Part shown: piece by piece, positions 5,537 to 25,924 of the stretch
Numbering within the stretch: the first letter of the stretch is position 1
Layout: the number at the start of each line of letters is the position of its first letter
DNA from: an uncultured Bacteroidales bacterium
Lineage (GTDB): Bacteria; Bacteroidota; Bacteroidia; Bacteroidales; Bacteroidaceae
Reading direction: 5' to 3'
Length of the DNA: 64,000 nucleotides
NCBI GenBank assembly: GCA_937916465.1
Contig: CALFTK010000021.1
Span: forward strand, 35,297-99,296
The notes under the pieces: model-generated
The model's database searches: none
Seen by the model: only the letters and a program-made list of their open reading frames with translations
What the model was told of the DNA's origin: nothing
Made by a program: the position numbers and the translations under genes

Positions 5537-7170
5537 TTATGAAAAATAGATATTTTTTGTTTGCATTGTCCGCATTAGTGCTAACAATGCCAATGTGGGG
5601 ACAGAATGATAATCTGCTTCCTTCAAGAACAATGACTATAGAGGGAACCTACAACCCGGCCTTGTCAAAAGGGGAAAAGATAACTGTAGCATCGGAGCAG
5701 TTGAATACTGAACGACAAGTAACAAATGTACAATATGTTACAGACGAACCTCAGGTTGCGGTCTATGAACGTGTACCAATACAGCCATTTGAAGCCAATC
5801 TTGAAATTGAAGAGGTTGATGTTTTTTCCGGATTTCTAAGTGGTGGTTATGGTTTAAGAAATAATTTTGATGCACTTATGGATTTGGAGTTTGCTAATTC
5901 TAATGGTACTGTATTTGGTTTTGATGGCTATATGGAGGGCTGGAATACCGAATTGGATGATGATTGGCGTTCCAAAATGTTTAATTCAAATGCAGAACTT
6001 TCATTCATGCACAGTTTTGATAATATCTCTATAGCTTTTGATGCCGATTATGGTTATCGCCGATACAATATTAGAAAAGGTAGCCTGATGGAATTCTATG
6101 GCAATGGATTAAACCGTTTCAATAGGGTAATAAATGAAGGCTCGTTTTTTGCCTCCATATTATCTGTTGGCGATTCTCCATGGGACTACTATTTGCAGGT
6201 GGGCTATCAAGGATTTAAAGGTAATAAACTTATTATCAATGACAAGAATCAAGACTACGATGAAAATATTCTACGTCTAAATGGTAATATTTCATTGCCG
6301 TTGGAATCGGGTATATTAAGTGTTGATTATAACCAAAAAAGTGTGTTGAATGATAAATATTCAACCATTACACTTACTCCTGCATGGATATGGAGCAACG
6401 AAAAGACATTCTTGTCATTGGGAGCCAATATAGATTTAAGAACAAAAAAGGAGGATGCAATATTAGCATCTCCTATGGTGATATACCGTAATCAGATGAA
6501 AACAAAAAGGAATATTGGTATATTATCGTTTACAGAAATCTCTGGTGGATTGATAGATAATGATATGCGTTCCTTATGGACTCTGTCACCATATTGGAGC
6601 AGCCAGAACAAAATTAAAGATGGATATACACTGGTTGATATATATTCCGGTTTGACCTTCTCGTTTACAGATAAGGTGACAATGGTTATAGGTAATGGTT
6701 TTAGTTATACAAAAAATGCTCTGTTTCAGACACTGTCCGATTCTATCATAGTTAGTTCCATGTTGGAACAGCACAATTCGGGATTGTTCTATAATAAACT
6801 GACTATTGATGCAGAAATGTCATCGTTGCTGAGTATGCGTTTTGGTGTAACTCACTATGATTGGACCAACAAGGATCTGGGTAAAGCCTTAACCTACAAA
6901 CCTGTTTGGGATATAACACTCGATTCAAGATTCATAATTACCGATGCTTTTGATGTGGTATTATCATACAATTTCAGCAAATTCCACAAATACAACGGTA
7001 AGGCAATAAACAATATGAATAATCTTTCGTTGAGCGCCGACTACAGATTTAGAAACAATTTGTCGCTATTTGCCGATTTGAACAACATTTTTAATAGTAG
7101 GCACTACTATTATGCAGGGTATATGGCACAAAAGTTCAATTTTGTAATAGGTGCAGCGTATAGATTCTGA
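5533..7170 (+). CDS. Putative outer-membrane beta-barrel protein
   Basis: 545 aa with a signal peptide, alternating aromatic/hydrophilic beta-strand patterns and a C-terminal ...GAAYRF aromatic terminus. It overlaps the stop of the TPR gene by 4 nt (ATGA). Confidence 0.5.
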   Translation: MIMKNRYFLFALSALVLTMPMWGQNDNLLPSRTMTIEGTYNPALSKGEKITVASEQLNTERQVTNVQYVTDEPQVAVYERVPIQPFEANLEIEEVDVFSGFLSGGYGLRNNFDALMDLEFANSNGTVFGFDGYMEGWNTELDDDWRSKMFNSNAELSFMHSFDNISIAFDADYGYRRYNIRKGSLMEFYGNGLNRFNRVINEGSFFASILSVGDSPWDYYLQVGYQGFKGNKLIINDKNQDYDENILRLNGNISLPLESGILSVDYNQKSVLNDKYSTITLTPAWIWSNEKTFLSLGANIDLRTKKEDAILASPMVIYRNQMKTKRNIGILSFTEISGGLIDNDMRSLWTLSPYWSSQNKIKDGYTLVDIYSGLTFSFTDKVTMVIGNGFSYTKNALFQTLSDSIIVSSMLEQHNSGLFYNKLTIDAEMSSLLSMRFGVTHYDWTNKDLGKALTYKPVWDITLDSRFIITDAFDVVLSYNFSKFHKYNGKAINNMNNLSLSADYRFRNNLSLFADLNNIFNSRHYYYAGYMAQKFNFVIGAAYRF

Positions 7171-7181
7171 AATTTTTGTTC

Positions 7182-7189
7182 TACTTTTG
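7182..7189 (+). promoter_or_regulatory. Bacteroides-type -7 promoter box (TACTTTTG) upstream of topA
   Basis: Matches the TAnnTTTG consensus of Bacteroides sigma-ABfr promoters and lies 40 nt upstream of the topA ATG. Confidence 0.45.
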
Positions 7190-7228
7190 CCCCCGATTTT
7201 TTTTCGGAGCAAATTAATTTGAAGAGTA

Positions 7229-9568
7229 ATGCAGAAAAATTTAGTGATAGTTGAGTCTCCGGCCAAAGCCAAGACAATAGAGAAATTCCTTGGAAAAGAC
7301 TTTAAAGTTTTATCAAGCTATGGCCATATATGTGACCTTAAAAAGAAGGATCTAAGTATTGATACAGATACATTTGAACCTATATACGAGATACCTCAAG
7401 ATAAAAAAAGAGTTGTTACGGAACTGAAAGAGGCTGCAGCCAAGGCAGAAATGGTTTGGTTGGCTTCCGATGAGGACCGCGAAGGAGAGGCTATCAGCTG
7501 GCATCTGTATGATACATTGGAACTAAAGCCGGAAAAGACAAAACGTATTGTATTTCACGAAATTACTAAGAATGCCATATTGCAGGCAATAGAAAACCCG
7601 CGCGATATAGACAGAAATCTGGTGCTTGCCCAGCAGGCCAGACGTGTTCTGGATAGAATAGTTGGTTTTAAACTTTCACCTGTTTTGTGGCGTAAAATCA
7701 AACCGTCGCTGTCAGCAGGACGTGTTCAGTCTGTGGCTGTTCGTCTTATTGTAGAGCGTGAACGTGAAATTAAAGCGTTCAAACCGGAAGTTTCGTATAA
7801 AGTGGTTGCAATATTCAGCTATCAGACTGCAGAAGGAAATGTGGTGAATGTCAAAGCGGATTACAGTGAGCGTTTCAAATCGAAAGAAGAGGCTACCCGT
7901 TTTCTTGAAAGTTGTGTAGGCAAAGAATTTTCGGTGAAGGATATCTCTGTGAAACCTCTTGTTAAAACGCCTGCTCCTCCGTTCACTACTTCTACTCTTC
8001 AACAGGAAGCTGCCAGAAAATATGGCTTTACAGTAATACAAACCATGATGTTGGCACAGCGCCTGTATGAATCGGGACGTATTACATATATGCGTACAGA
8101 CTCAGTAAACCTGTCATCGCTCTGTATCAATTCAAGCCGCAAGGTTATAGAAGATACTATGGGTGCTGAATATGTAAAGAGCAGGCAGTATAACGTTAAA
8201 TCCAAAGGTGCGCAGGAGGCTCACGAAGCAATTCGTCCAACATATATGGAGAATGCAACAATAGATGCTCCTGCACCCGAAAGAAGAATATATGAACTAA
8301 TCTGGAAACGTACCATCGCATCGCAGATGGCAGATGCTCAGATTGAGAAGACTGTTGTAGCCGTTCAGGCCGATGGCTTGCAAGGCGAATTTGTAATTAC
8401 CGGCGAAATAACAAAGTTTGATGGTTTTCTTAAGGTTTATCGTGAATCGCGTGATGATGATCAGGAGACAATCAACGAAAGTGTTTCGGGAATGCCGGCA
8501 TTTGCCGTAGGTAATAAACTGCAAGTTGTTAATATTGATGCAGTAGAACGCCTTACACAGCGTCCGCAGAGATACAACGAAGCTGCTCTTGTTCATAAAA
8601 TGGAAGAATTAGGTATAGGTCGTCCATCTACATACGCCCCAACAATCAGCACAATTCAGCAGCGCGAATATGTGTTGCGTGAAGATATAGCAGGTAAGAT
8701 GATCAATTATAATCTTATCAGGCTACAAGACGATACGATAACAGAACAGACTCTTTCAGAGAATCACGGTTCTGAAAAGTCAAAACTTGTTCCAACAGAT
8801 ATAGGACTGGTTGTAAACGATTTCCTATTGGATAGTTTCCCTGATATTATGAGTTATAACTTTACTGCAATGGTAGAAAAAGAATTTGACGGTATTGCTG
8901 ACGGTGAGAAGCCTTGGGATGCAGTAATTCGTGAATTCTATGCCGATTTCGCACCTGCAGTAGATAGTGCTATGACACAGAAAAACGAATATAAGGTGGG
9001 TGAACGCGTCTTAGGTACAGATCCTGTATCGGGCAAACCTGTAACTGTCAAGATAGGCAGATATGGTCCTATTGTTCAGATAGGCAGTGCCGAAGATGAA
9101 GAGAAACCTCGCTTTGCGCAGATGAAGAAGGGACAGACTCTTGAAAATATAACCTTTGAACAGGCAATGGAACTCTTTAAGTTGCCTCGCACTCTTGGCG
9201 AATATAACGGGCAATCAGTTATAATTGGTACAGGAAAATTTGGCCCATACATACGTTATGGCAGTTCATACGTATCGATACCTAAAACTCTCGATCCGCA
9301 TACTATTACTTTTGAACAGGTGTTGGAACTGATAAAAGAAAAGGAACAGACCGAAGCAAATAAACTGATAAAGAAGTTTGAAGGCGAATTGGATGTAGAG
9401 ATTCTGAACGGTCGATATGGTCCATATATTGCAAGTGGTGGCAAAAACTATAAGATTCCAAAGAACCTGAATCCTGCTGACTTGACAATAGAAGAGTGCA
9501 AGAATATTATCAGTGAATTAGAATCCAAGGGAACTGCTACAAAACGTCGTTCAACCAAACGTAAATAA
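7229..9568 (+). CDS. topA: DNA topoisomerase I
   Basis: 779 aa with the TOPRIM start LVIVESPAKAKTIEKFLG, a DEDREGE motif, and a C-terminal repeated zinc-ribbon-like/KR-rich tail. Confidence 0.95.
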   Translation: MQKNLVIVESPAKAKTIEKFLGKDFKVLSSYGHICDLKKKDLSIDTDTFEPIYEIPQDKKRVVTELKEAAAKAEMVWLASDEDREGEAISWHLYDTLELKPEKTKRIVFHEITKNAILQAIENPRDIDRNLVLAQQARRVLDRIVGFKLSPVLWRKIKPSLSAGRVQSVAVRLIVEREREIKAFKPEVSYKVVAIFSYQTAEGNVVNVKADYSERFKSKEEATRFLESCVGKEFSVKDISVKPLVKTPAPPFTTSTLQQEAARKYGFTVIQTMMLAQRLYESGRITYMRTDSVNLSSLCINSSRKVIEDTMGAEYVKSRQYNVKSKGAQEAHEAIRPTYMENATIDAPAPERRIYELIWKRTIASQMADAQIEKTVVAVQADGLQGEFVITGEITKFDGFLKVYRESRDDDQETINESVSGMPAFAVGNKLQVVNIDAVERLTQRPQRYNEAALVHKMEELGIGRPSTYAPTISTIQQREYVLREDIAGKMINYNLIRLQDDTITEQTLSENHGSEKSKLVPTDIGLVVNDFLLDSFPDIMSYNFTAMVEKEFDGIADGEKPWDAVIREFYADFAPAVDSAMTQKNEYKVGERVLGTDPVSGKPVTVKIGRYGPIVQIGSAEDEEKPRFAQMKKGQTLENITFEQAMELFKLPRTLGEYNGQSVIIGTGKFGPYIRYGSSYVSIPKTLDPHTITFEQVLELIKEKEQTEANKLIKKFEGELDVEILNGRYGPYIASGGKNYKIPKNLNPADLTIEECKNIISELESKGTATKRRSTKRK

Positions 9569-12771: not shown

Positions 12772-12845
12772 GGGCTTTTAGCTCAGTCGGTTAGAGCAAC
12801 AGACTCATAATCTGGAGGTCCTAGGTTCAAGTCCTAGATGGCCCA
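12772..12845 (+). tRNA. tRNA with CAT anticodon (tRNA-Met; a lysidine-modified tRNA-Ile2 cannot be excluded)
   Basis: Hand-folded cloverleaf. Acceptor GGGCTTT/ATGGCCC has one T-T mismatch and one G-T pair. D stem is GCTC/GAGC, the anticodon loop is CTCATAA, the T arm is CTAGG-TTCAAGT-CCTAG, and the discriminator is A. No CCA is encoded. Confidence 0.85.
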
Positions 12846-12846
12846 C
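12827..12846. repeat. 20-bp direct repeat, copy 1 (3' end of the tRNA, tcaagtcctagatggcccac)
   Basis: Identical to 12982-13001 by direct reading. Confidence 0.95.
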
Positions 12847-12850
12847 TTAA

Positions 12851-12880
12851 GAAAACTGCTACGGCAGTTTTCTTTTTTTT
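12851..12880 (+). terminator. Rho-independent terminator after the tRNA
   Basis: Stem gaaaactgc/gcagttttc with a 4-nt loop, followed by a run of 8 T. Confidence 0.6.
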
Positions 12881-12901: not shown

Positions 12902-12983
12902 CGGTTATCTCCTTCGTTTTACGTTTGCACCGGCTTTGCCGACAGCAAACACGAAGTCGATGGGTCTCTTCGAGACAAATCTC
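12902..12983. repeat. 82-bp direct repeat, copy 1 (left island boundary)
   Basis: Reads identically to 25843-25924 (cggttatctccttcgttttacgtttgcaccggctttgccgacagcaaacacgaagtcgatgggtctcttcgagacaaatctc). Confidence 0.95.
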
Positions 12984-13001
12984 AAGTCCTAGATGGCCCA
13001 C
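12982..13001. repeat. 20-bp direct repeat, copy 2 (orphan tRNA 3' end; attR-like scar)
   Basis: Identical to 12827-12846 and followed by its own terminator hairpin. Confidence 0.9.
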
Positions 13002-13011
13002 ATTAAAAATC

Positions 13012-13044
13012 AAGCAGTTACGAATTTTCGTAACTGCTTTTTTC
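13012..13044 (+). terminator. Rho-independent terminator following the orphan tRNA 3' fragment
   Basis: 13-bp stem aagcagttacgaa/ttcgtaactgctt with a 2-nt loop, followed by a T-run. Confidence 0.6.
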
Positions 13045-13333: not shown

Positions 13334-13341
13334 TATTTTTG
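13334..13341 (+). promoter_or_regulatory. -7 promoter box (TATTTTTG) for the island operon
   Basis: TAnnTTTG match 22 nt upstream of the ATG at 13363. I found no other such box before hsdS. Confidence 0.45.
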
Positions 13342-13353
13342 TAACAAACAATT

Positions 13354-13578
13354 GTGAATAACATGGAAGTAGTAAGAGACTTAAATCGCTTGAAAGTAAT
13401 TTTGGCTGAGAAAAAAAAGACAAACAAATGGTTGGCTGAACAATTGGGGTGTGCGCCAACCACCGTCTCTAAATGGTGCACAAATTCCTCTCAGCCTTCC
13501 TTGGAAATGATTGAGAGAATCGCTATTCTGCTAGACATAGATTATACGGAACTTATTAGAATAGACAGGAAATCATGA
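13354..13578 (+). CDS. XRE-family helix-turn-helix transcriptional regulator (C-protein-like controller?)
   Basis: About 71-74 aa with the HTH core KTNKWLAEQLGCAPTTVSKWCTNSSQPSLEMIERIAILL. The real start is probably the ATG at 13363. The stop overlaps the next gene's start (ATGA). Confidence 0.85.
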   Translation: MNNMEVVRDLNRLKVILAEKKKTNKWLAEQLGCAPTTVSKWCTNSSQPSLEMIERIAILLDIDYTELIRIDRKS

Positions 13579-14426
13579 GGGATAAAAACACTTTTACCAT
13601 TCATACAGAGCTTCTTGGTGGTAAACTCAATGGGGCAAGAAATATATATATGGGTGCGAATTCCACCTGTCATCTTTATGTAATTCCTCGTGAAGAGATT
13701 ACATTAGCCAATGCAATCAATGACATTTCTGGTCAGCCAGCCTTCTATATTTTGCTTAGTTCCCTTGACGCAAAGAGGAAACAGGCTTATATTGGTCAAA
13801 CGACAGATTTCGCAAATAGAAAAAATGATCATGTGCAAAAGAAAGATTTCTGGAACATAGCCCTTATCTTTATTTCAGATAATCATAAAATTTATGGTGA
13901 CGATGTGAAATATTTGGAGTATCTAGGTATTGAAGCAGCACAAAATGCTGGCTCATTCGAGTTGTTGAATGGTATCAATCCTAAAAGACCAAACATTGCT
14001 CCCTATCGTATAAATGATATGGAAGTATTCTTCCGTGACATTCAGTTGTTATGTAATTTTTATGGCTGTAATATTTTTGAAACTATCACGTATAAAGAAA
14101 CAAAAGAGCATTTATATTTTGTCGAATCCATAGATCGACCTGCACAAGGTCGTGGATTCTACGATGAGAAACATGGTAAATTCATTTTGTTAGAAGGAAG
14201 TATCATTGCAAATGAGGTTGTGAAAAGTTTTAAGTCCATTTCATTTCGTAATCAGTTTATTAAAGAACATTGTAAAAAAGATAAGGGACAAATAGTACTC
14301 CTTAATGATATATCTTTTGACACTCCTAGTGGTGCTTCTAGTCTTGTTTTAGGTCGTCCAAGTAATGGGTGGAGCGATTGGAAGGATGCAGAAGGAAAGA
14401 AGCTTAGTGATATAATTAAAAGATAA
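13575..14426 (+). CDS. GIY-YIG nuclease-like protein with a C-terminal DUF4357-like domain
   Basis: 283 aa. FYILL...(12 aa)...YIGQTTDFANRKNDH...W...YLEYLGIE...N matches the GIY-YIG / Arg / Glu / Asn pattern. The C-terminal TPSGASSLVLGRPSNGWSDWK resembles the DUF4357 signature. Confidence 0.7.
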   Translation: MRDKNTFTIHTELLGGKLNGARNIYMGANSTCHLYVIPREEITLANAINDISGQPAFYILLSSLDAKRKQAYIGQTTDFANRKNDHVQKKDFWNIALIFISDNHKIYGDDVKYLEYLGIEAAQNAGSFELLNGINPKRPNIAPYRINDMEVFFRDIQLLCNFYGCNIFETITYKETKEHLYFVESIDRPAQGRGFYDEKHGKFILLEGSIIANEVVKSFKSISFRNQFIKEHCKKDKGQIVLLNDISFDTPSGASSLVLGRPSNGWSDWKDAEGKKLSDIIKR

Positions 14427-14436
14427 AAGTATTAAT

Positions 14437-15720
14437 ATGACAGCAATTGTAGGTACTATAAATCGAAGAGGTGTTGCATTTGCAGCAGATAGTGCAGCAA
14501 CACATACTGTATCTTCTAAGCATAAGATTACAAATCATGCTAATAAGATTTTTGAATTATCAAGGCGACATCCTGTAGGTGTTTGTATTTGTGGGAATCT
14601 AGATTTTTTAGGAATGCCTTGGGAGGATATTTTCAAGTTGTTTAGAAAAGAACTGGGAAAAACTTCATGCGCAAATCTCAAAGAATATCCTACCATGTTT
14701 TTTGAATTTGTGAAAACTCATATAATGTCTCATTTGTTAGAAGATCAAACAACAAATCTTAGAGTCATAGTAAATGGTTTCTGGCAAGAAATTATAGATA
14801 TTTCAAGCAAAGAATTGAAAGAGGCTAGTAAAGATACATCGGAAGAGAATTTGTTCTGTAAGATACAAGAGAAACTGATTTATTTCGAAAATATATATTC
14901 TCCTATTAATATCAATAAGTGTGCAGATTTTGAAGATTATACAATAGATGAATTTACAAGTTATGCAACGGAAATCATTGAAGATGTGCTAAAAGAACCT
15001 TTGAACTCTCATTTGTGTCCTAAAGATTTCTTGAAGCAGTTTACCCAAGCTTTATATAACATCATTGTCTCCACTGTTCATGTTTATCTTGTTAACTCTG
15101 AAATTATTTTCTGGGGATATGGTGAAGAAGATTTGTTTCCTTCATATTTCTCTTTTATCATAAGTTCTGCTTTTGATGGGAGAATAAAATTTACCAATAA
15201 GAGTGCATATGTTGTATCAAACATCAATAATGCGTGCGTTGAGCCATTTGCACAGACAGATGTTGCCAACACAGTGGTAAGAGGCATAGATGACGATCTT
15301 CGCAAAAAGTTTTATGACAGCTATAAAGCATCAATAACCGTTTTTAGAGATGAAATCATATCTCAATTAGACTCTGCCGGAGCGCCTGAAGTCTTAAAAG
15401 ATGCATTGCTAAAAATTGACCTGGAAAATTATACAAACTTATATGTTCAAGGTATGGATCTGTATATTCAGGACAATTATATTGCGAAATTAGTTAACAC
15501 AGTGTCATACTTGAGTAAGGAAGATTTGGCGGATATGGCCGAAAGTCTTGTTCGAATGACATATTTAAAACGGCGCATAACATCAGAAGAAGAAAGTGTG
15601 GGAGGACCTGTTGATGTAGCTGTGATAACTAAAGGAGATGGTTTCGTTTGGTTAAAAAGAAAGCATTATTTTTCTGCAGAGTTAAATCCACATTATTTTG
15701 AACGCACCAATATAGATTAG
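14437..15720 (+). CDS. Proteasome-beta/HslV-like Ntn-hydrolase homologue with large helical insertions (uncharacterised)
   Basis: 427 aa. MTAIVGTINRRGVAFAADSAAT places Thr directly after Met and Asp 16 residues later, as Thr1/Asp17 in proteasome beta subunits. NKIFEL supplies a Lys33-like lysine, followed by VGVCICGNLD. The C-terminal SVGGPVDVAVITKGDGFVWL resembles the SGG...kdG end of beta subunits. Confidence 0.55.
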   Translation: MTAIVGTINRRGVAFAADSAATHTVSSKHKITNHANKIFELSRRHPVGVCICGNLDFLGMPWEDIFKLFRKELGKTSCANLKEYPTMFFEFVKTHIMSHLLEDQTTNLRVIVNGFWQEIIDISSKELKEASKDTSEENLFCKIQEKLIYFENIYSPININKCADFEDYTIDEFTSYATEIIEDVLKEPLNSHLCPKDFLKQFTQALYNIIVSTVHVYLVNSEIIFWGYGEEDLFPSYFSFIISSAFDGRIKFTNKSAYVVSNINNACVEPFAQTDVANTVVRGIDDDLRKKFYDSYKASITVFRDEIISQLDSAGAPEVLKDALLKIDLENYTNLYVQGMDLYIQDNYIAKLVNTVSYLSKEDLADMAESLVRMTYLKRRITSEEESVGGPVDVAVITKGDGFVWLKRKHYFSAELNPHYFERTNID

Positions 15721-15722
15721 TA

Positions 15723-15899
15723 ATGATTACAATATATAGTGAAAAGAAAGAAGTTCGTAATAATGCTATGCCATCACAAATGAAAGGTGGTGTAGGTGTA
15801 GAATCCGTCATGCCCGTTTCTTTGTTGAAAATGCGTGAACTTGTAAAAAAGAACTTGGATGCCGTTAAAATAGAATGGCAAAATGAAAAACAAAAATAA
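15723..15899 (+). CDS. 58-aa small ORF (hypothetical), below the track cutoff
   Basis: My translation is MITIYSEKKEVRNNAMPSQMKGGVGVESVMPVSLLKMRELVKKNLDAVKIEWQNEKQK. The ATG lies 2 nt after the upstream stop and the ORF ends 20 nt before hsdR, exactly filling the gap. Confidence 0.35.
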   Translation: MITIYSEKKEVRNNAMPSQMKGGVGVESVMPVSLLKMRELVKKNLDAVKIEWQNEKQK

Positions 15900-15919
15900 G
15901 GAACATAAAATGCCAATCC

Positions 15920-20070
<4,151 letters not shown>

Positions 20071-20074
20071 AGGT

Positions 20075-21229
20075 ATGGAAAACAATATAGTCATATCGAT
20101 GGAGCAACAGTTTGGCGAAGTTGTTGATATTATTCTTCAACATAAAAGCCGTGCATCTAAAGTCGTAAATGATGAATTGCTTCTTACGGCTTGGCATGTA
20201 GGTGGCTATGTTTCAGCCAAACTAAAAAGCGAAGAATGGGGAAGCAAAGTTGTATCTCAGTTATCAGAATATATACGTTCTCAGCATCCCGATATAAAAG
20301 GATATGGACGTAGCAGTATCTACAATATGGTTATGTTCTATGAAGAATACTCATCAGAAACTTTTGCTTTAACTGTAGAACGATATCTGAATTCCGAATT
20401 CGTCCAGCCAACAATTGGACAAATTGAAAGGTCATCAATTGTATCAAGCGATGAAGCAAATATAATAGTGCAGGCAGCATCCGCACAAATTGTCCAACCA
20501 TTGGCTGGACAAATGCCTAAAATATTGGAATTGACAACGTTTACAAATCACATTGAGATTCTTTGTCGATGCAAAAGCAATGAAGAACGATTGTTCTATA
20601 TTCTTTATGCTAACAAAGAACGTTTGGTTAAACGAGAACTTCAACGTTGCATTTCCAATCAGACTTATTCTACGCTGTTGGGTAGCAAAAATAACATGTC
20701 AAAAGGTTTGCTTGAAACATATCCCAATGCACCTGTAATGTTCAAGGACACGTTGTTTGTTGACTTTCTTAATTTACCGAAGAAGCATAGTGAAACAAAG
20801 CTAAAAAACAGTTTGGTGGAAAACATGAAGCAGTTTATCCTTGAATTGGGAAAGGACTTCATCTCTATGGACCAAGAATACAGACTTCAAGTTGGTGCAT
20901 CGACATATAAAGCGGACTTGCTGTTTTATCATCGTGGTTTGCAAGCTCTGGTAGCAGTAGAACTTAAAAAGACAAAGTTTCATCCAAGAGACCTCGGACA
21001 ATTGGAGTTCTATTTGGAGGCCCTTGACAGAGACGTGAAGCGTTCCAATGAGAATCCATCTATTGGAATCATTCTTTGTCCTGAAGCCGATCGTGTGGTA
21101 GTGGAATATGCCATGAGTCGTAGTATGAGCCCTACAATGATAGCTGAATATAAGCGTATCCTCATTCCGCAGGAGCGCTTGCAACAGCAACTTGATGAAT
21201 TTTGTAATGTATTTCTAACTAAAAAATAA
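20075..21229 (+). CDS. DUF1016 / YhcG-family PD-(D/E)xK nuclease-like protein
   Basis: 384 aa. The N-terminal region (SKVVNDELLLTAWHVGGYV...WGSKVVSQLSEYI) and the C-terminal core (DLLFYHRGLQALVAVELKKTKF) are typical of YhcG. Confidence 0.7.
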   Translation: MENNIVISMEQQFGEVVDIILQHKSRASKVVNDELLLTAWHVGGYVSAKLKSEEWGSKVVSQLSEYIRSQHPDIKGYGRSSIYNMVMFYEEYSSETFALTVERYLNSEFVQPTIGQIERSSIVSSDEANIIVQAASAQIVQPLAGQMPKILELTTFTNHIEILCRCKSNEERLFYILYANKERLVKRELQRCISNQTYSTLLGSKNNMSKGLLETYPNAPVMFKDTLFVDFLNLPKKHSETKLKNSLVENMKQFILELGKDFISMDQEYRLQVGASTYKADLLFYHRGLQALVAVELKKTKFHPRDLGQLEFYLEALDRDVKRSNENPSIGIILCPEADRVVVEYAMSRSMSPTMIAEYKRILIPQERLQQQLDEFCNVFLTKK

Positions 21230-21234
21230 CTGTC

Positions 21235-22683
21235 ATGGATACCAAGAAACTACGTCAAAAGATACTCGACCTTGCTATTCATGGCAAGCTTGTTTCCCAA
21301 GATCCCAACGATGAACCTGCATCGGTGTTACTTGAACGTATCCGTGCAGAGAAGGAACGACTGGTAAAAGAAGGGAAAATAAAGAAGAGCAAAGCCTCAA
21401 AAACTACCGATACGCCCCATTATGAGAACGTGCCGTTTGAGGTACCGAGTTCGTGGGAGTGGTGCAATCTGGAGGATATATGTATTTTTCTATCACGAGG
21501 GAAATCACCGAAATATTCAGAAGATGATAGAACCTACCCAGTGTTCGCTCAAAAATGTAATTTGAAGGATGGTGGTATATCATTAGAACAAGCAAGATTT
21601 TTAGATCCTTCAACAGTCACTAAATGGAACGACATTTACAAATTACAGACAGGTGACATTCTTGTTAATTCTACTGGTACAGGAACTGTCGGTAGAACAA
21701 GATTGTTTGATGTCACTTGTTTGGGAAGCTATCCTTTTGTGGTTCCAGACTCTCACGTCTCTGTTATAAGAACTTCAAACCAAATAAATTCAAAGTTTAT
21801 TTTTGCCTATATATCATCTAAATTTATCCAACAATATCTAGAAGAGAATCTTGCAGGAAGTACAAACCAGAAGGAATTATACATAGGAGTCTTATCAACT
21901 CTTCGTATTCCAATCCCTTCTTTTACCGAACAAGAACGTATTGTCGCAGAAATAGAGAAGTGGTTTGCTCTTATAGATCAGATTGAACAAAAAAAAGGCG
22001 ATTTACAAGCTACCATCAAACAGACAAGAAGTAAGATTCTCGACCTTGCCATCCACGGCAAACTCGTACCACAAGACCCCAACGATGAACCTGCTTCGGA
22101 ATTGCTCAAACGTATAAAACCTAAAGCGGAAATCACTTGTGATAACGGGCAGTATGGGAAGTTACCAGAGGGATGGTGTTTGGTAACTGGTACAACTCTA
22201 TTCAAACAGATGAAATCCTCTAAACCAAAAGGAGAACTTTTTAAGTATATTGACATTGACTCTATAGATAATAAGTCTAATATTGTGTCCTCTATCAAAG
22301 AAATACCCACTGTAAAAGCCCCAAGTAGAGCAAGCAGATATACAGAAAAAGGAGATGTGGTTTTTTCAATGGTTAGACCATATTTAAGAAATATTGCCCG
22401 AATAACGGAAAACGATTGCATTGCATCAACAGGCTTTTATATATGTAGTCCTTACAATTATATGCATTCTATGTTCTGCTATTATTTAATGCTTTCGGAT
22501 TATGTCGTTGATGGTCTTAACTCCTTTATGAAAGGTGATAATTCACCATCCATAACGAAAAGAGATGTTGATAATTGGTTATATCCTTTACCACCGATGA
22601 ATGAACAACATCGTATTGTCGTTAAAATTGAGGAAATCTTTACCCTCCTTGATAGGATTGAATTGTCACTCAGAATGTGTTGA
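21235..22683 (+). CDS. hsdS: Type I R-M specificity subunit, expressed locus (CR1-TRD A-CR2-TRD B-CR3)
   Basis: 482 aa. The conserved segment KILDLAIHGKLV.QDPNDEPAS occurs at the N-terminus and again in the centre. There are two variable TRDs, and the gene is the last member of the operon. Confidence 0.9.
   Translation: MDTKKLRQKILDLAIHGKLVSQDPNDEPASVLLERIRAEKERLVKEGKIKKSKASKTTDTPHYENVPFEVPSSWEWCNLEDICIFLSRGKSPKYSEDDRTYPVFAQKCNLKDGGISLEQARFLDPSTVTKWNDIYKLQTGDILVNSTGTGTVGRTRLFDVTCLGSYPFVVPDSHVSVIRTSNQINSKFIFAYISSKFIQQYLEENLAGSTNQKELYIGVLSTLRIPIPSFTEQERIVAEIEKWFALIDQIEQKKGDLQATIKQTRSKILDLAIHGKLVPQDPNDEPASELLKRIKPKAEITCDNGQYGKLPEGWCLVTGTTLFKQMKSSKPKGELFKYIDIDSIDNKSNIVSSIKEIPTVKAPSRASRYTEKGDVVFSMVRPYLRNIARITENDCIASTGFYICSPYNYMHSMFCYYLMLSDYVVDGLNSFMKGDNSPSITKRDVDNWLYPLPPMNEQHRIVVKIEEIFTLLDRIELSLRMC
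21409..21462. repeat. Shufflon inverted repeat IR1, copy a (end of CR1 in hsdS)
   Basis: The reverse complement of 25629-25682 matches at 49 of 54 positions by my count, with a 20-bp perfect core gatacgccccattatgagaa. Confidence 0.8.
22129..22151. repeat. Shufflon inverted repeat IR2 core, copy a (end of CR2 in hsdS)
   Basis: 23-bp perfect match (gaaatcacttgtgataacgggca) to the reverse complement of 24973-24995. It sits within a roughly 200-bp imperfect inverted similarity. Confidence 0.8.
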
Positions 22684-22745: not shown

Positions 22746-22985
22746 TTATCCACGAGGTGGAAATGGGTCGTTTCCATGAGAGTCACGTTCTCTTATACAT
22801 CCATCTCGTCAATGCACAAACAGTTCCGTGTGTTGATTTTTAGAAATAGAACGAGCGAGTGCGATGGCCTCTGCTTGGGTTGCATGATAAGACGTCATTC
22901 GACTATTGCCAGCTCCTTTCACACCCCATTTCCCATTTGACGGAACAACATGTTGATTCTTACCAATTTTAACACCTCCTCTCAA
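22746..22985 (-). pseudogene. DUF2188-family small protein gene, disrupted by an in-frame TGA with no ATG at the expected start
   Basis: My translation is ..KIGKNQHVVPSNGKWGVKGAGNSRMTSYHATQAEAIALARSISKNQHTELFVH*RDGCIRERDSHGNDPFPPRG*. The internal stop is at 22811-22809. AGGAGG sits 7 nt upstream of an ATT at 22967-22965. Confidence 0.6.
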
Positions 22986-23106: not shown

Positions 23107-23910
23107 TCACCAATTCACCACCTTATCTACAATCTTTTGCTGTTCGCTTGCAGTTCGACGTAGATAGATACGAGTCGTTTCTATGCTTTCATGACCCATC
23201 AGGTCAGCAAGTAGGGCAAGGTCATTGAAACGGTCGAGGAAGTTCTTAGCAAAACGATGACGGAATGAATGGGGATAAACAACTTCCCTGTTCATTCCGT
23301 ACTTGTCTGCAAAATGCTTTAACTGTTGAGCTATGCCACGTGTAGTAATGCGTTCGCCAAATCGATTGAGGAAGATGTAACCAGAAGAGCGTCCTTGTTC
23401 TTTTAGCCATTTAGTGGCTTCTAATCTCAGGTTCTTCGGAATATACAAACGACGTATCTTTCCGCCCTTGCTATAAAGGTCAAGATGCCCAATCAGCACG
23501 TGTTCTGCTTTGATATGAAGCAGTTCACTGACACGTGCTCCTGTAGCTGCCATAAACCACACTACAAAATACCATTCATCATAACCATCTGCTTTGAGTC
23601 GTGCTTTGAGAAACTTGTAATCGGCATCACTGATTACATTTTCCAAGAAGTTCTTCTGTTGGACTTTTACGAATTTCACTTTCAGTTTCTCTTGCTTTGT
23701 AAATTCAAGATACTTGTTGATGCCTTGCAAACGTAGGTTTACGGTCTGTGGTTTGAAGTTCTCTACTAAATACCCTTTGTATGCCAAAAGGTTCTTTTTG
23801 TTGACTTCCCCATAATGACTGAGAAAATACTGTACCGTCCATACATAAGAAGTAACGGTGTTCTTTGCCAAATTAGTCTTGGCCAGATTGTCTTTGAATT
23901 TTGTTACCAT
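23107..23910 (-). CDS. Tyrosine site-specific recombinase (shufflon invertase)
   Basis: 267 aa with catalytic-signature residues ATGARVSEL (Arg), HSFRHRFA (His-x-x-Arg) and GHESIETTRIYL (His...Tyr). It lies between hsdS and the silent cassettes. Confidence 0.85.
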   Translation of the reverse strand: MVTKFKDNLAKTNLAKNTVTSYVWTVQYFLSHYGEVNKKNLLAYKGYLVENFKPQTVNLRLQGINKYLEFTKQEKLKVKFVKVQQKNFLENVISDADYKFLKARLKADGYDEWYFVVWFMAATGARVSELLHIKAEHVLIGHLDLYSKGGKIRRLYIPKNLRLEATKWLKEQGRSSGYIFLNRFGERITTRGIAQQLKHFADKYGMNREVVYPHSFRHRFAKNFLDRFNDLALLADLMGHESIETTRIYLRRTASEQQKIVDKVVNW

Positions 23911-23959
23911 ACTACATTGAAATTAAAATGAATACAGTATCAATATAAAGAAGACGTAT

Positions 23960-23981
23960 CGGGCATTATCAGAACTTGCCT
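23960..23981. repeat. Shufflon inverted repeat IR3, copy a
   Basis: 22-bp perfect match (cgggcattatcagaacttgcct) to the reverse complement of 24957-24978. Confidence 0.8.
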
Positions 23982-24446
23982 AGTTCGTGGTGTGTTGCGC
24001 CCATGGGAATACTGTGTTCTTTAAGCGACGGGGAGAAGCAAACAGGTGTAGAAAGAATAAATCTTGATGTCAAATATTTGAGGGGTGAGCGTGATGCCAA
24101 AACTCTAGCAGTAGGTAAGTTCACACCAGCAAATTCACTTCTGATATTGGTTGACGGAGAAAATTCTGGAGAAGTTTTCAGGACTCCAATTGAGGGTTAT
24201 CAAGGCAGTACTTTCAAGCAACTGTCTATAAAAGATGATATGAATACAGACTATGTCCTGCAAGTTATAAACTTACATCGTAAGACACTGAGAGAAAATA
24301 AGGTAGGCTCTGCAATTCCGCATCTGAACAAAAAACTGTTTAAAGAAATAGAAGTACCAATTCCTCCTTACAAAGAACAACAAAGGATAGTCGAAACCAT
24401 AAATCATGCATTTAAGCATCTTGATACAATAATGGAGAGCCTATAA
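23976..24446 (+). other. Silent hsdS half-cassette (TRD E plus CR3); no start codon or promoter of its own
   Basis: It begins in mid-motif (..GHYQNLPSSW..) at a TTG and ends with the hsdS C-terminal consensus PPYKEQQRIVETINHAFKHLDTIMESL. Confidence 0.8.
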
Positions 24447-24460
24447 ACTCTCCATTATTG
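24427..24460. repeat. Perfect 13-bp inverted repeat at the tail-to-tail junction of the two silent cassettes
   Basis: caataatggagag (24427-24439) and ctctccattattg (24448-24460) are separated by 8 nt. Both arms encode ..IMESL, and the two stop codons overlap. Confidence 0.85.
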
Positions 24461-24956
24461 CGTCTAATTGAGCAAATGTCTTTCTAACTGCACTTACGAT
24501 TCTTTCTTGTTCTCCCAATGGAGGCAAAAGAAAATCAAAATTGCCTATTACGTTAGCACTGATATTAGGTTGTGCACCACCATAAGCCAGTTTTAGTATT
24601 TCTTCCACTTTTGACCGCATAAAACAATCCCTGTACGATGCTAGCAATATGGAATCATCTAAGATACGTATGTTCGCAACTCGTTGGTTCAAATATACTG
24701 TTTCTTCATATGAATAAACTCCCATTTTACCGGTTGTAGCTCCTGACATTGCGATCAACAAATCGCCCTTGGTTACAATAAATCTGTCATCTACTTTTTC
24801 CTGAATATAAACACACTCTGTTAAATCGATGGAATTGTTCACTATATTAGATATGCGTATTAACGGTACACCTTCTGTCATGTAATCATTGCTGCTAAAG
24901 GCAAAACCATTTTCAATTTTACACAAATCGGAAAGCTTACATACTCCCCATCCTTC

Positions 24957-24978
24957 AGGCAAGTTCTGATAATGCCCG
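24957..24978. repeat. Shufflon inverted repeat IR3, copy b
   Basis: Reverse complement of 23960-23981. Confidence 0.8.
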
Positions 24979-24995
24979 TTATCACAAGTGATTTC
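24973..24995. repeat. Shufflon inverted repeat IR2 core, copy b
   Basis: Reverse complement of 22129-22151. Confidence 0.8.
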
Positions 24996-25628
24996 GGCAT
25001 TTGGATTGATACGTTTGAGCAACTCTGATGCAGGCTCGTCACTTGGGTCTTGCGCTACAAGTTTGCCTTGTATAGCAAGGTCAAGAATTTTAGATTTGGT
25101 TTGTTTGATCGCTGTTAGTAAATCTGTCTTTTCTCGTTCTATTTGCTCTATCAAAGCAAACCATTTCTCTATTTCTGCTACAATTCGGATTTGCTCTGCA
25201 AGTGGAGGAAGAGGAAATAATAACTTTGCAAAATTTCCTTTGTTTAATATTGGAAGAGTAGTTGCTGAGGCATTAAATTTTATTTCATCCTGAAAATAAT
25301 CTGATGTGCACACATCATATATGAATTCCGCTAAAATGAAATCATGAGGAATTATTGCGTTTATTTGTTGATTACAACTACCTTCAATTGTTATTAGCCC
25401 TGTTTTTCCAATAGTTGCACCAATACAAGTAATTAATACTGATTTTACAGGTAGTTTTCGAGCTTGTTCAAATCCTAATAATGAAAGATGATCACTTGCT
25501 CTTTTCACGCATTTTCCTTGTTCTAAATCTGTTGGTTTATAAAATGGTATATCACCGCCATAGTATTCAGGAATATCTTTAGAAGGGGTACTACCTGTAA
25601 CGATTTCACCAATATTCCCGACCTCCGT

Positions 25629-25682
25629 CCACTCCCACGAACTAGGAATTTCAAACGGCACATTCTCATAATGGGGCGTATC
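25629..25682. repeat. Shufflon inverted repeat IR1, copy b
   Basis: Reverse complement of 21409-21462 with 5 mismatches. Confidence 0.8.
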
Positions 25683-25842: not shown

Positions 25843-25924
25843 CGGTTATCTCCTTCGTTTTACGTTTGCACCGGCTTTGCCGACAGCAAACACGAAGTCG
25901 ATGGGTCTCTTCGAGACAAATCTC
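25843..25924. repeat. 82-bp direct repeat, copy 2 (right island boundary); hairpin-rich on the minus strand
   Basis: Identical to 12902-12983. Confidence 0.95.

Follow-up and report, generated by a model that had tools for sequence, protein, structure and literature searches.

A predicted proteasome-type hydrolase and its small partner gene ahead of a type I restriction-modification operon in Bacteroidales: a candidate defense cassette

Do the four genes that precede hsdR at the head of a type I restriction-modification (R-M) operon in an uncultured Bacteroidales bacterium constitute a single system, and is that system tied to restriction? The question is raised by a 64,000-nucleotide (nt) stretch of contig CALFTK010000021.1 (hereafter the window, meaning that whole stretch), in which the open reading frame (ORF) calls delineate eight tightly packed forward-strand ORFs between positions 13354 and 22683, one fewer than the nine counted in a preliminary description of the window. 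These encode, in order, an XRE-family helix-turn-helix (HTH) regulator, a GIY-YIG/DUF4357 nuclease-like protein of 283 amino acids (aa), a proteasome-like protein of 427 aa, the 58-aa product of a small ORF (smORF), HsdR, HsdM, a DUF1016 protein and HsdS. The preliminary description read the first four genes as a defense module, built on a pairing of the nuclease with the threonine-protease-like protein under the HTH, that would serve as a second-line system in the manner of PrrC. Across the loci that we collected, the conserved unit is the protease gene with its small downstream ORF, not the four genes, and the GIY-YIG nuclease, this two-gene cassette and the R-M system are independent as modules. 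The earlier interpretation is supported in part; the conserved partner of the protease is the smORF, which the preliminary description had listed and left unconnected.

We give an even chance to the interpretation that the island stacks three separable defense-type modules in one probable transcription unit, the second of them acting as an abortive-infection or toxin-antitoxin (TA)-like defense. The first module would comprise the XRE HTH controller and the GIY-YIG/DUF4357 nuclease, which matches the PADLOC candidate PDC-S14; the second, self-contained, would comprise a threonine N-terminal nucleophile (Ntn) hydrolase of the PMI type ('Proteasome homolog with Multiple Insertions', a designation without an assigned function; PMC8665760) and a soluble, rapidly evolving partner of 45-80 aa; and the third would be a phase-variable type I R-M system that has a DUF1016 nuclease within it. 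There is nothing unusual about the R-M system, and the nuclease is a listed PADLOC candidate, while the family of the 427-aa protein was probably catalogued bioinformatically in 2021. What is new here is the smORF partner and the defense and mobile-element context of a proteasome-fold enzyme.

The hydrolase and its small partner gene

Neither the 427-aa protein (14437..15720, forward strand) nor the 58-aa smORF product has a match in Pfam, NCBIfam (June 2026) or PADLOC, and the former matches phrog_5990 with an E-value of 4e-95. An AlphaFold2 (AF2) model of the 427-aa protein, built from 38 homologs, has a predicted local distance difference test (pLDDT) score of 82 and a predicted template modeling (pTM) score of 0.78, and places strands at residues 4-53, helices at 62-211, strands at 221-271, helices at ~274-382 and strands at 392-409. 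Together, the AF2 model and the Foldseek and BFVD comparisons point to an alpha-beta-beta-alpha sandwich. In the PDB, Foldseek places 20S proteasome subunits, and nothing else, in the first 50 ranks (best E = 6e-4; probability 0.91-1.00; target-normalized TM-score up to 0.55), and the top match in BFVD is a 'Proteasome beta type-2 subunit' (target-normalized TM-score 0.65). A full-length profile retrieves weak proteasome matches among PDB sequences (E = 0.2), and hhalign against the single Thermoplasma acidophilum sequence aligns the C-terminal 21 residues only. When the two helical insertions are cut out before the PDB search, the resulting insert-free core profile has the T. acidophilum proteasome beta subunit as its only PDB matches (E = 1.3e-5). 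Judged from these profile and model comparisons, the protein is a homolog of the proteasome-beta/HslV-type Ntn (threonine) hydrolases that bears two helical insertions. The gene identities given in the preliminary description, including the proteasome-like Ntn fold of this protein, are thereby borne out across the cluster by Pfam, PADLOC, AF2 and Foldseek.

The alignment with the T. acidophilum beta subunit equates T2, D18 and K37 of the window protein with Thr1, Glu17 and Lys33, respectively. Among 73 diverse members of the family, which share ~30-45% identity with the window protein, D18 never varies, and T2 and K37 are each kept in at least 90%; among the 38 close members T2 is invariant, and the window protein itself begins M-T-A-I-V-G. 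A Met-Thr start is likewise found in most of the 150 best representatives at 50% identity, with a Met-Ser start in a few. There is no propeptide, and the predicted threonine nucleophile would therefore be exposed through simple removal of the initiator Met.

The smORF (15723..15899, forward strand) begins immediately behind the protease gene, and its status as a partner rests on a comparison across ~190 loci from genomes, metagenomes, viral contigs, and phage and Escherichia coli records, which we thinned to 100 representatives with an identity ceiling of 80% (67 cellular and 33 viral). In 82 of the 93 representatives with enough downstream sequence, the protease gene is followed immediately by a small ORF of 45-80 aa that opens with ATG, whereas in a control set made up of the remaining genes of those loci, with a minimum length of 150 aa, only 58 of 740 (7.8%) are followed by such an ORF. 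The start of the smORF falls between -23 and +29 nt from the protease stop, with a median gap of 5 nt, and the two co-oriented, adjacent genes with minimal spacing that stay paired on mobile elements show the organization expected of TA or abortive-infection modules. Within Bacteroidales the smORF products can be aligned and display an N-terminal M-x-T-I-Y-S-E and a C-terminal I-x-W motif. They are hydrophilic (median grand average of hydropathy, GRAVY, -0.78), and an examination for membrane segments found none. The ratio of nonsynonymous to synonymous substitution rates (dN/dS) is 0.10-0.50 for the smORF as against 0.06-0.12 for the protease; the values for the smORF point to purifying selection and therefore to a real gene, which by these estimates evolves under weaker constraint than the protease. 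All-against-all clustering of 329 neighboring proteins brought out no third conserved partner.

Relation to the nuclease and to the restriction-modification operon

The packing of the cluster is what first suggests a single system. The HTH gene (13364..13578, forward strand; Pfam HTH_26, E = 1.6e-9, and HTH_3, E = 4e-9) is read from an ATG at 13364, which yields 71 aa and is conserved across orthologous loci, whereas the GTG at 13354 is not. Its stop overlaps the start of the 283-aa gene by 4 nt (ATGA, 13575-13578), and the spacers that follow measure 10 nt between the 283-aa and 427-aa genes, 2 nt to the smORF, 20 nt from there to hsdR, and 5, 4 and 5 nt at the hsdR/hsdM, hsdM/DUF1016 and DUF1016/hsdS junctions. 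All of the junction distances of the preliminary description were reproduced from the ORF calls, and the operon-like packing that it reported holds up by the ORF coordinates.

Ahead of the HTH gene lies a TAnnTTTG box (TATTTTTG; 13334..13341, forward strand), a candidate Bacteroidota -7 promoter element for the cluster. It is the only copy in the upstream intergenic space, and seven orthologous loci keep it as TATYTTTG, 22-24 nt ahead of the start codon. The motif occurs 101 times in the window (expected 74 +/- 9), and seven more forward-strand copies lie within the cluster (at 13397, 14072, 17257, 17284, 18755, 19901 and 21798), so that by itself it proves nothing; the box that had been described as single is thus unique and conserved upstream, but not within the cluster. 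A search of the forward strand from 13341 to 22683 yielded no convincing terminator, while strong hairpins are present just upstream of the cluster, at 12849-12874 and 13012-13039. With no convincing terminator between the box and the end of hsdS, co-transcription, and hence a reading of the cluster as one transcript, is plausible. Operator-like repeats were sought in the promoter region, and nothing conserved was found there.

The comparison of loci separates the nuclease from the cassette. The 283-aa protein (13575..14426, forward strand) matches the PADLOC model PDC-S14 (PDLC04925; E = 3.8e-59) over its full length, from residue 6 to 280, and scores well over the Pfam cut-off for DUF4357 (E = 8.5e-16; 58 bits against 38.4) and just under that for GIY-YIG (E = 2.8e-4; 21.6 bits against 22.6); NCBI labels its homologs 'GIY-YIG nuclease family protein'. 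By this full-length match the gene is one already catalogued as the single-gene defense candidate PDC-S14, which in the searchable literature appears in genome surveys only, with no published phenotype, and remains a prediction. Homologs at 60-73% identity are solitary among housekeeping genes, belong to triads with an HTH and a D12 methylase, or sit in other islands, and none of them adjoins the protease. In two loci (L198 and L199, positions 5740-8737), homologs with 70% identity lie between a 65-aa XRE HTH and a D12-class adenine methyltransferase, an arrangement that hints at a type II R-M system of controller, nuclease and methylase. The same gene order suggests that the HTH of the window belongs with the nuclease, and we regard this HTH as the likely controller of either the adjacent nuclease or the operon. 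The window gene thus resembles PDC-S14 in its full-length match and in its DUF4357 score, and differs in its setting, being preceded by an overlapping XRE HTH, whereas the homologs in L198 and L199 are followed by a D12 methylase.

The order HTH, GIY-YIG, protease, smORF and hsdR is kept in Alloprevotella, Prevotella, other Prevotellaceae and a Bacteroidaceae metagenome-assembled genome (MAG), with protease identities of 67-99%, and by its gene order and identities this set is one syntenic island lineage. A GIY-YIG homolog stands beside the protease in only three of the 100 representatives (the window, L117 and L013), all of the window's island lineage, and the loci L118-L120, whose proteases are 78% identical, already lack it. 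The preliminary description had proposed to ask whether the 427-aa and 283-aa proteins co-occur elsewhere; they essentially do not, since no pairing was found outside this one lineage and the 60-73% homologs of the nuclease are never beside the protease, which speaks against the two as one system. A single system of four genes was accordingly rejected. Within one Prevotellaceae MAG (L016, 8926-11192), the HTH gene is frameshifted and the GIY-YIG/DUF4357 gene is intact; the protease there is a frameshifted pseudogene that ends at about residue 399, and neither the smORF nor hsdR is present.

The link to R-M is looser than an obligate one, which bears on the proposal that the cassette, with or without the nuclease, is a PrrC- or RloC-like guard coupled to R-M that fires when a phage disables restriction. 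The protease is indeed often near R-M operons of several types, as the preliminary description led one to expect: 11 of the 67 cellular representatives have R-M components no more than 8 kb away, a frequency for which the base rate around random genes is judged to be far lower (an estimate, not a computed value), and so do 9-10 of the ~31 cellular representatives that are well flanked, with at least three R-M types and both orientations represented. In the window the cassette stands 20 nt ahead of hsdR with no predicted terminator between them, the gene order persists in several Bacteroidales lineages, and elsewhere the cassette independently abuts R-M systems of differing type, such as a divergent type I operon (L162), a methyltransferase (MTase) with an S subunit (L019) and PLD-helicase plus MmeI-type systems (L110 and L118). 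Two of these loci, L118 and L162, also have a related XRE HTH gene interposed between R-M operon and cassette. Against such a guard, no R-M component is found within 8 kb in the remaining 56 cellular and in all 33 viral representatives, many of which have short flanks, and the cassette travels alone in prophages, satellites and plasmids. Further, five loci of gut Prevotella (L011 and L114-L117) keep the four upstream genes intact at ~80% identity, although hsdR stops at ~408 of 903 aa and neither hsdM nor hsdS occurs within 8 kb; a functional type I R-M system is therefore not required to keep the module. The nuclease never accompanies the protease outside one lineage, and ABC-ATPase or anticodon-nuclease domains of the PrrC or RloC kind were found in none of the four upstream proteins by Pfam, NCBIfam or PADLOC. 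With the nuclease already listed as PDC-S14 and the four genes persisting without a complete type I R-M system, the PrrC-like second line under the HTH that had been proposed loses its footing, and we consider a guard coupled to R-M distinctly improbable.

The XRE HTH genes at 7614-8001 in L118-L120 and at 7633-8001 in L162 are 46-62% identical to that of the window and lie between an R-M operon and the cassette. Each heads the R-M operon on the opposite strand, either a PLD-helicase with an MmeI-type methylase or an hsdM-hsdS-hsdR operon, ~175-190 nt from the protease start, and a shared divergent promoter region could, to judge from this arrangement, link the cassette to the R-M controller. 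The placement of these HTH genes may reflect defense-island clustering, shared regulation or real coupling.

The R-M operon of the window is a complete type I system with full-length hsdR, hsdM and hsdS. The restriction subunit gene hsdR (15920..18631, forward strand) is EcoEI/EcoAI-like (Pfam ResIII, EcoEI_R_C and HSDR_N; PADLOC REase_I); the methyltransferase gene hsdM (18637..20070, forward strand) matches Pfam N6_Mtase (8.6e-70) and HsdM_N and PADLOC MTase_I (1.6e-167); the DUF1016/YhcG gene (20075..21229, forward strand) encodes a PD-(D/E)XK nuclease-like protein (Pfam YhcG_C, 4.6e-49, and DUF1016_N; PADLOC PDC-S02, 1.2e-111); and hsdS (21235..22683, forward strand) is the expressed specificity copy (Pfam Methylase_S; PADLOC Specificity_I, 1.3e-102). 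The expectation that only type I R-M would be called in the island thus fails, as PADLOC also matches the 283-aa gene (PDC-S14) and the DUF1016 gene (PDC-S02). Beyond hsdS, an hsdS shufflon (23107..25661) is delineated by ORFs and inverted repeats and consists of a 267-aa tyrosine recombinase (23107..23910, reverse strand) and silent hsdS cassettes (23976..24446, forward strand, and 24441..25661, reverse strand). Inverted repeats of 269, 84, 59 and 25 nt link the expressed and silent copies, and the recombinase and silent cassettes with these repeats therefore indicate phase-variable specificity. Between hsdS and the recombinase lies a further 58-aa ORF (22809-22985, reverse strand; MRGGVKIGKNQHVVPSNGKWGVKGAGNSR...), which may resemble the DUF2188-type small proteins.

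Two copies of a perfect 82-nt direct repeat, a left copy at 12902..12983 (from exact-match extension and alignment) and a right copy at 25843..25924 (exact match), close a segment of ~12.9 kb that runs from the HTH gene through the shufflon. Just upstream is a tRNA-Met gene (12772..12846, forward strand; ARAGORN, and Rfam RF00005 at 67 bits), and a 20-nt copy of its 3' end recurs at 12982-13001, 135 nt downstream of the gene. In a 99%-identical locus (L010), homology to the window begins at this tRNA-end copy, beside a different tRNA gene. The bracketing repeats and the tRNA-end copy make the cluster look like one mobile island of ~12.9 kb, and this tRNA-associated island was possibly formed by two nested integration events.

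Genomic contexts and candidate functions

If the cassette is the unit, its distribution is the principal guide to its role. The protease family has 3792 matches in a 90%-clustered database and 5622 representatives at 50% identity, nearly all of 400-450 aa, and every named member is labelled 'hypothetical protein'. Of the 31 non-redundant cellular loci with good flanks, 13 or more have defense-type genes within ~3 genes of the cassette, counting as such R-M, AbiE, SIR2/ThsA-like, PDC-S60, PDC-M36A, PLD/OLD and FRG genes, and the commonest Pfam families among the neighbors are Eco57I, N6_Mtase, ResIII, MmeI_Mtase, PLDc_2, Methylase_S and AbiEii. The R-M neighbors include a type I system together with AbiE (L001), an MTase and S pair that runs into the protease gene with a 4-nt overlap (L019), PLD-helicase with MmeI-type methylase (L110 and L118), an integrase island with AbiE and an Eco57I/TaqI_C-type R-M (L112), and a divergent HTH-hsdM-hsdS-hsdR operon (L162). 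Other neighborhoods feature a PLD nuclease (PDC-S05) with OLD/UvrD-like genes (L005), PDC-M36A with SIR2_2 (L009), an HNH gene and an MTase-HIT fusion upstream with a ThsA-like SIR2 downstream (L018), PDC-S60 (L017 and L022), AbiE (L154), an FRG protein (L015) or a DUF1016 homolog ~6.5 kb upstream (L144).

The cassette is also found on mobile elements. Relatives of the protease are encoded on 248 IMG/VR stretches; plasmid copies occur in Rhizobium, Enterococcus and Pantoea; and in Streptococcus satellite phages the cassette occupies the accessory end. Its place in E. coli prophages and in a lambdoid phage of Providencia is a moron slot beside the antiterminator Q, near Dam methylase and lysis genes. 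The homolog WP_000123148.1 ('hypothetical protein') is present in 22 of 5426 complete E. coli genomes. In one of these strains (ETEC-2265, NZ_CP023346.1; locus L194, 5957-7413), the cassette lies in a lambdoid prophage by Q, near a Dam methylase, a tRNA and a holin gene, and the RefSeq annotation of that record misses the 49-aa partner ORF (7264-7413). In a Porphyromonas prophage the cassette has been inserted into the morphogenesis region, next to a methyltransferase. There the protease gene falls between portal and neck genes, and the idea that it encodes a major capsid protein was rejected: the fold is proteasome-like, and the prophage encodes a separate prohead protease and major capsid protein at another place.

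Such settings raise the alternative that the cassette serves the mobile element, as a counter-defense protease or through superinfection exclusion or lysogenic conversion. The abundance in viral contigs and the phrog_5990 match favor it, as do the two prophage-type settings in which the cassette is embedded among phage functions: the Providencia phage, where it is co-oriented with Q and the lysis genes, and the Porphyromonas prophage, where it lies within the morphogenesis region by a methyltransferase. Many copies, however, reside in chromosomal islands that have no phage genes and stand beside host defense systems, and in the E. coli and related prophages the cassette is transcribed on the strand opposite to Q and lysis, as is typical of morons expressed by the lysogen; a purely element-serving role thus appears quite unlikely to us.

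A second alternative takes the cassette for a selfish addiction or stabilization module of the TA kind, which maintains mobile elements and has no part in phage defense. It would account for the two-gene format with a small, fast-evolving partner, for the presence on plasmids, prophages, satellites and integrative islands, and for other TA genes (RelBE, HokD and AbiE) near some loci. In most type II TA systems the antitoxin gene lies upstream of the toxin gene, whereas here the small gene is downstream, and the frequent bona fide defense neighbors fit defense at least equally well; as many TA systems themselves defend, the two readings overlap. Addiction without defense strikes us as unlikely.

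Proteasome homologs with insertions can also be sequence-specific ligases, as in the connectase (PMC7980362; PMC8665760), and the pair could by analogy be a peptide-processing one in which the Ntn hydrolase cleaves or ligates a smORF-encoded precursor, connectase-like or in the manner of ribosomally synthesized and post-translationally modified peptides (RiPPs), unrelated to immunity. The adjacency of the smORF to the protease and its short conserved terminal motifs within each clade would fit this; but among the 329 clustered neighbor proteins no transporter, immunity or modification genes co-occur with the cassette, and the smORF products are long, charged and hydrophilic without a conserved Cys pattern. 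We give this possibility very little credence.

We therefore return to the abortive-infection or TA-like defense as the role proposed for the cassette. The large protein would be a latent protease that lacks a propeptide and has its Thr1 nucleophile free; its helical insertions may confer target specificity or gate the active site, and the small partner would act as a cognate inhibitor, antitoxin or sensor that restrains it. Upon infection, or upon loss of the partner, the protease would be released to cleave host or phage proteins, with abortive-infection or TA-like defense as the outcome. The protease activity and its latency, the restraint or targeting by the smORF product, and the role in defense are all what we infer from fold, gene pairing and context. 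The placement of the cassette beside R-M would then reflect defense-island clustering, possibly with shared regulation, rather than an obligate guard relationship.

Several observations weigh against this proposal. About half of the cellular loci have no recognized defense neighbor, and about seven non-redundant loci (L005, L009, L020, L021, L023, L126 and L132) edge capsule or lipopolysaccharide (LPS) sugar-biosynthesis clusters, while a few more stand among genes that give no hint. The Providencia phage cassette lies in the late region on the same strand as Q and the holin gene, which also fits a phage-serving function. At the catalytic center, the equivalent of the oxyanion-hole Gly47 is not clearly conserved: the alignment ends at Ala46, the window protein has G53 two residues beyond that aligned position, and the family consensus there is IYxxA. 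The loops 20-34 and 382-389, which are close to the active site, have low confidence in the AF2 model. Finally, the smORF products of different clades cannot be aligned with one another, so that homology among them, and with it a shared role, is only putative. Given these points, we propose only tentatively the more specific view that the pair is a new and widespread anti-phage module in which a proteasome-family threonine protease is held latent by a small protein and released on infection. We are equally cautious about its extension, in which some lineages have the module wired to R-M by a common XRE controller, to form a second line.

For the annotation of such islands, the lesson is that tight operon packing does not equate to one system, as three modules are stacked here. 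An orphan family of proteasome homologs gains a genomic context, along with a tiny partner gene that annotation often overlooks, and the native E. coli version makes the hypothesis of a threonine-protease abortive-infection or TA system testable. Were the proposal to hold, it would bring a new catalytic class to bacterial immunity, tie the proteasome fold to a prokaryotic immune function in the first prokaryotic defense system built on that fold, supply a role for the most populous class of 'orphan' proteasome homologs and account for a passenger that keeps recurring beside the R-M operons of gut and oral Bacteroidota.

Comparison with known systems

The preliminary description knew of no defense system built on a proteasome fold, and this stands: neither the defense libraries nor the searchable literature hold such a protein, and our search of that literature for a link of proteasome, Ntn or HslV proteins to phage defense returned no relevant paper. 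Among the R-M passengers, PrrC of the EcoprrI locus and RloC offer the nearest likeness in setting, namely a non-R-M gene in or beside a type I R-M operon that possibly acts as a back-up if restriction fails. The upstream proteins of the window differ from both in having no ABC-ATPase or anticodon-nuclease domain and in a link to R-M that is facultative. They also differ from PrrC in position. The place between hsdM and hsdS that PrrC occupies in the prr locus is held here by the DUF1016 gene, not by the protease, and that gene is positionally the better candidate for a PrrC-style R-M passenger, if there is any.

Functional parallels are closer to known protease effectors and TA modules. Like Lit, the CHAT/caspase-like proteases, the Lon-like CalpL and two-gene TA systems, the cassette combines a compact, accessory putative protease effector with a small partner and is likewise found in defense islands and mobile elements. 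It differs in its predicted catalytic class, that of an N-terminal threonine, for which the libraries and the literature searched yielded no described defense system, in having no recognizable sensor domain, and in a partner that is downstream and has no DNA-binding domain.

In its fold and catalytic residues, the 427-aa protein resembles HslV and the 20S beta subunits (MEROPS T1), with an N-terminus that would be generated, as in HslV, by removal of Met. Unlike these, it carries ~230 extra residues of helical insertions; in insertion-bearing homologs, the insertions possibly prevent ring assembly (PMC8665760). There is no HslU/AAA+ unfoldase gene near the 427-aa gene, nor does any AAA+ unfoldase recur among the protease neighbors across the loci. 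The gene is further set apart by being accessory and mobile rather than housekeeping.

The best match among described families is PMI. Fuchs, Alva and Lupas described 22 new proteasome homologs in 2021, among which PMI-3 and PMI-4 carry extended insertions at two sites, after H1/H2 and between H3/H4; of the groups of this type, PMI-4 is the largest, and it spans many phyla and also phages, and the authors found no gene context suggestive of function (PMC8665760). The 427-aa protein shares with them the proteasome-beta fold, equivalents of the Thr1/Asp17/Lys33 triad and the lack of a propeptide, its insertions (helices 62-211 and ~274-382) fall at the two PMI-3/PMI-4 sites, and its family is likewise broad across phyla, phages included, with no AAA+ partner. 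The family is thus probably of the PMI type and specifically PMI-4, an assignment made by comparison with the published description, in which HDY66466.1 (PMI-4) and OGZ26396.1 (PMI-3) are the reference sequences. The 5622 clusters at 50% identity found here are about ten times the 501 sequences listed in that study (PMC8665760), and the downstream smORF and the defense-island and moron contexts, which are absent from the 2021 description, are what set the present cassette apart.

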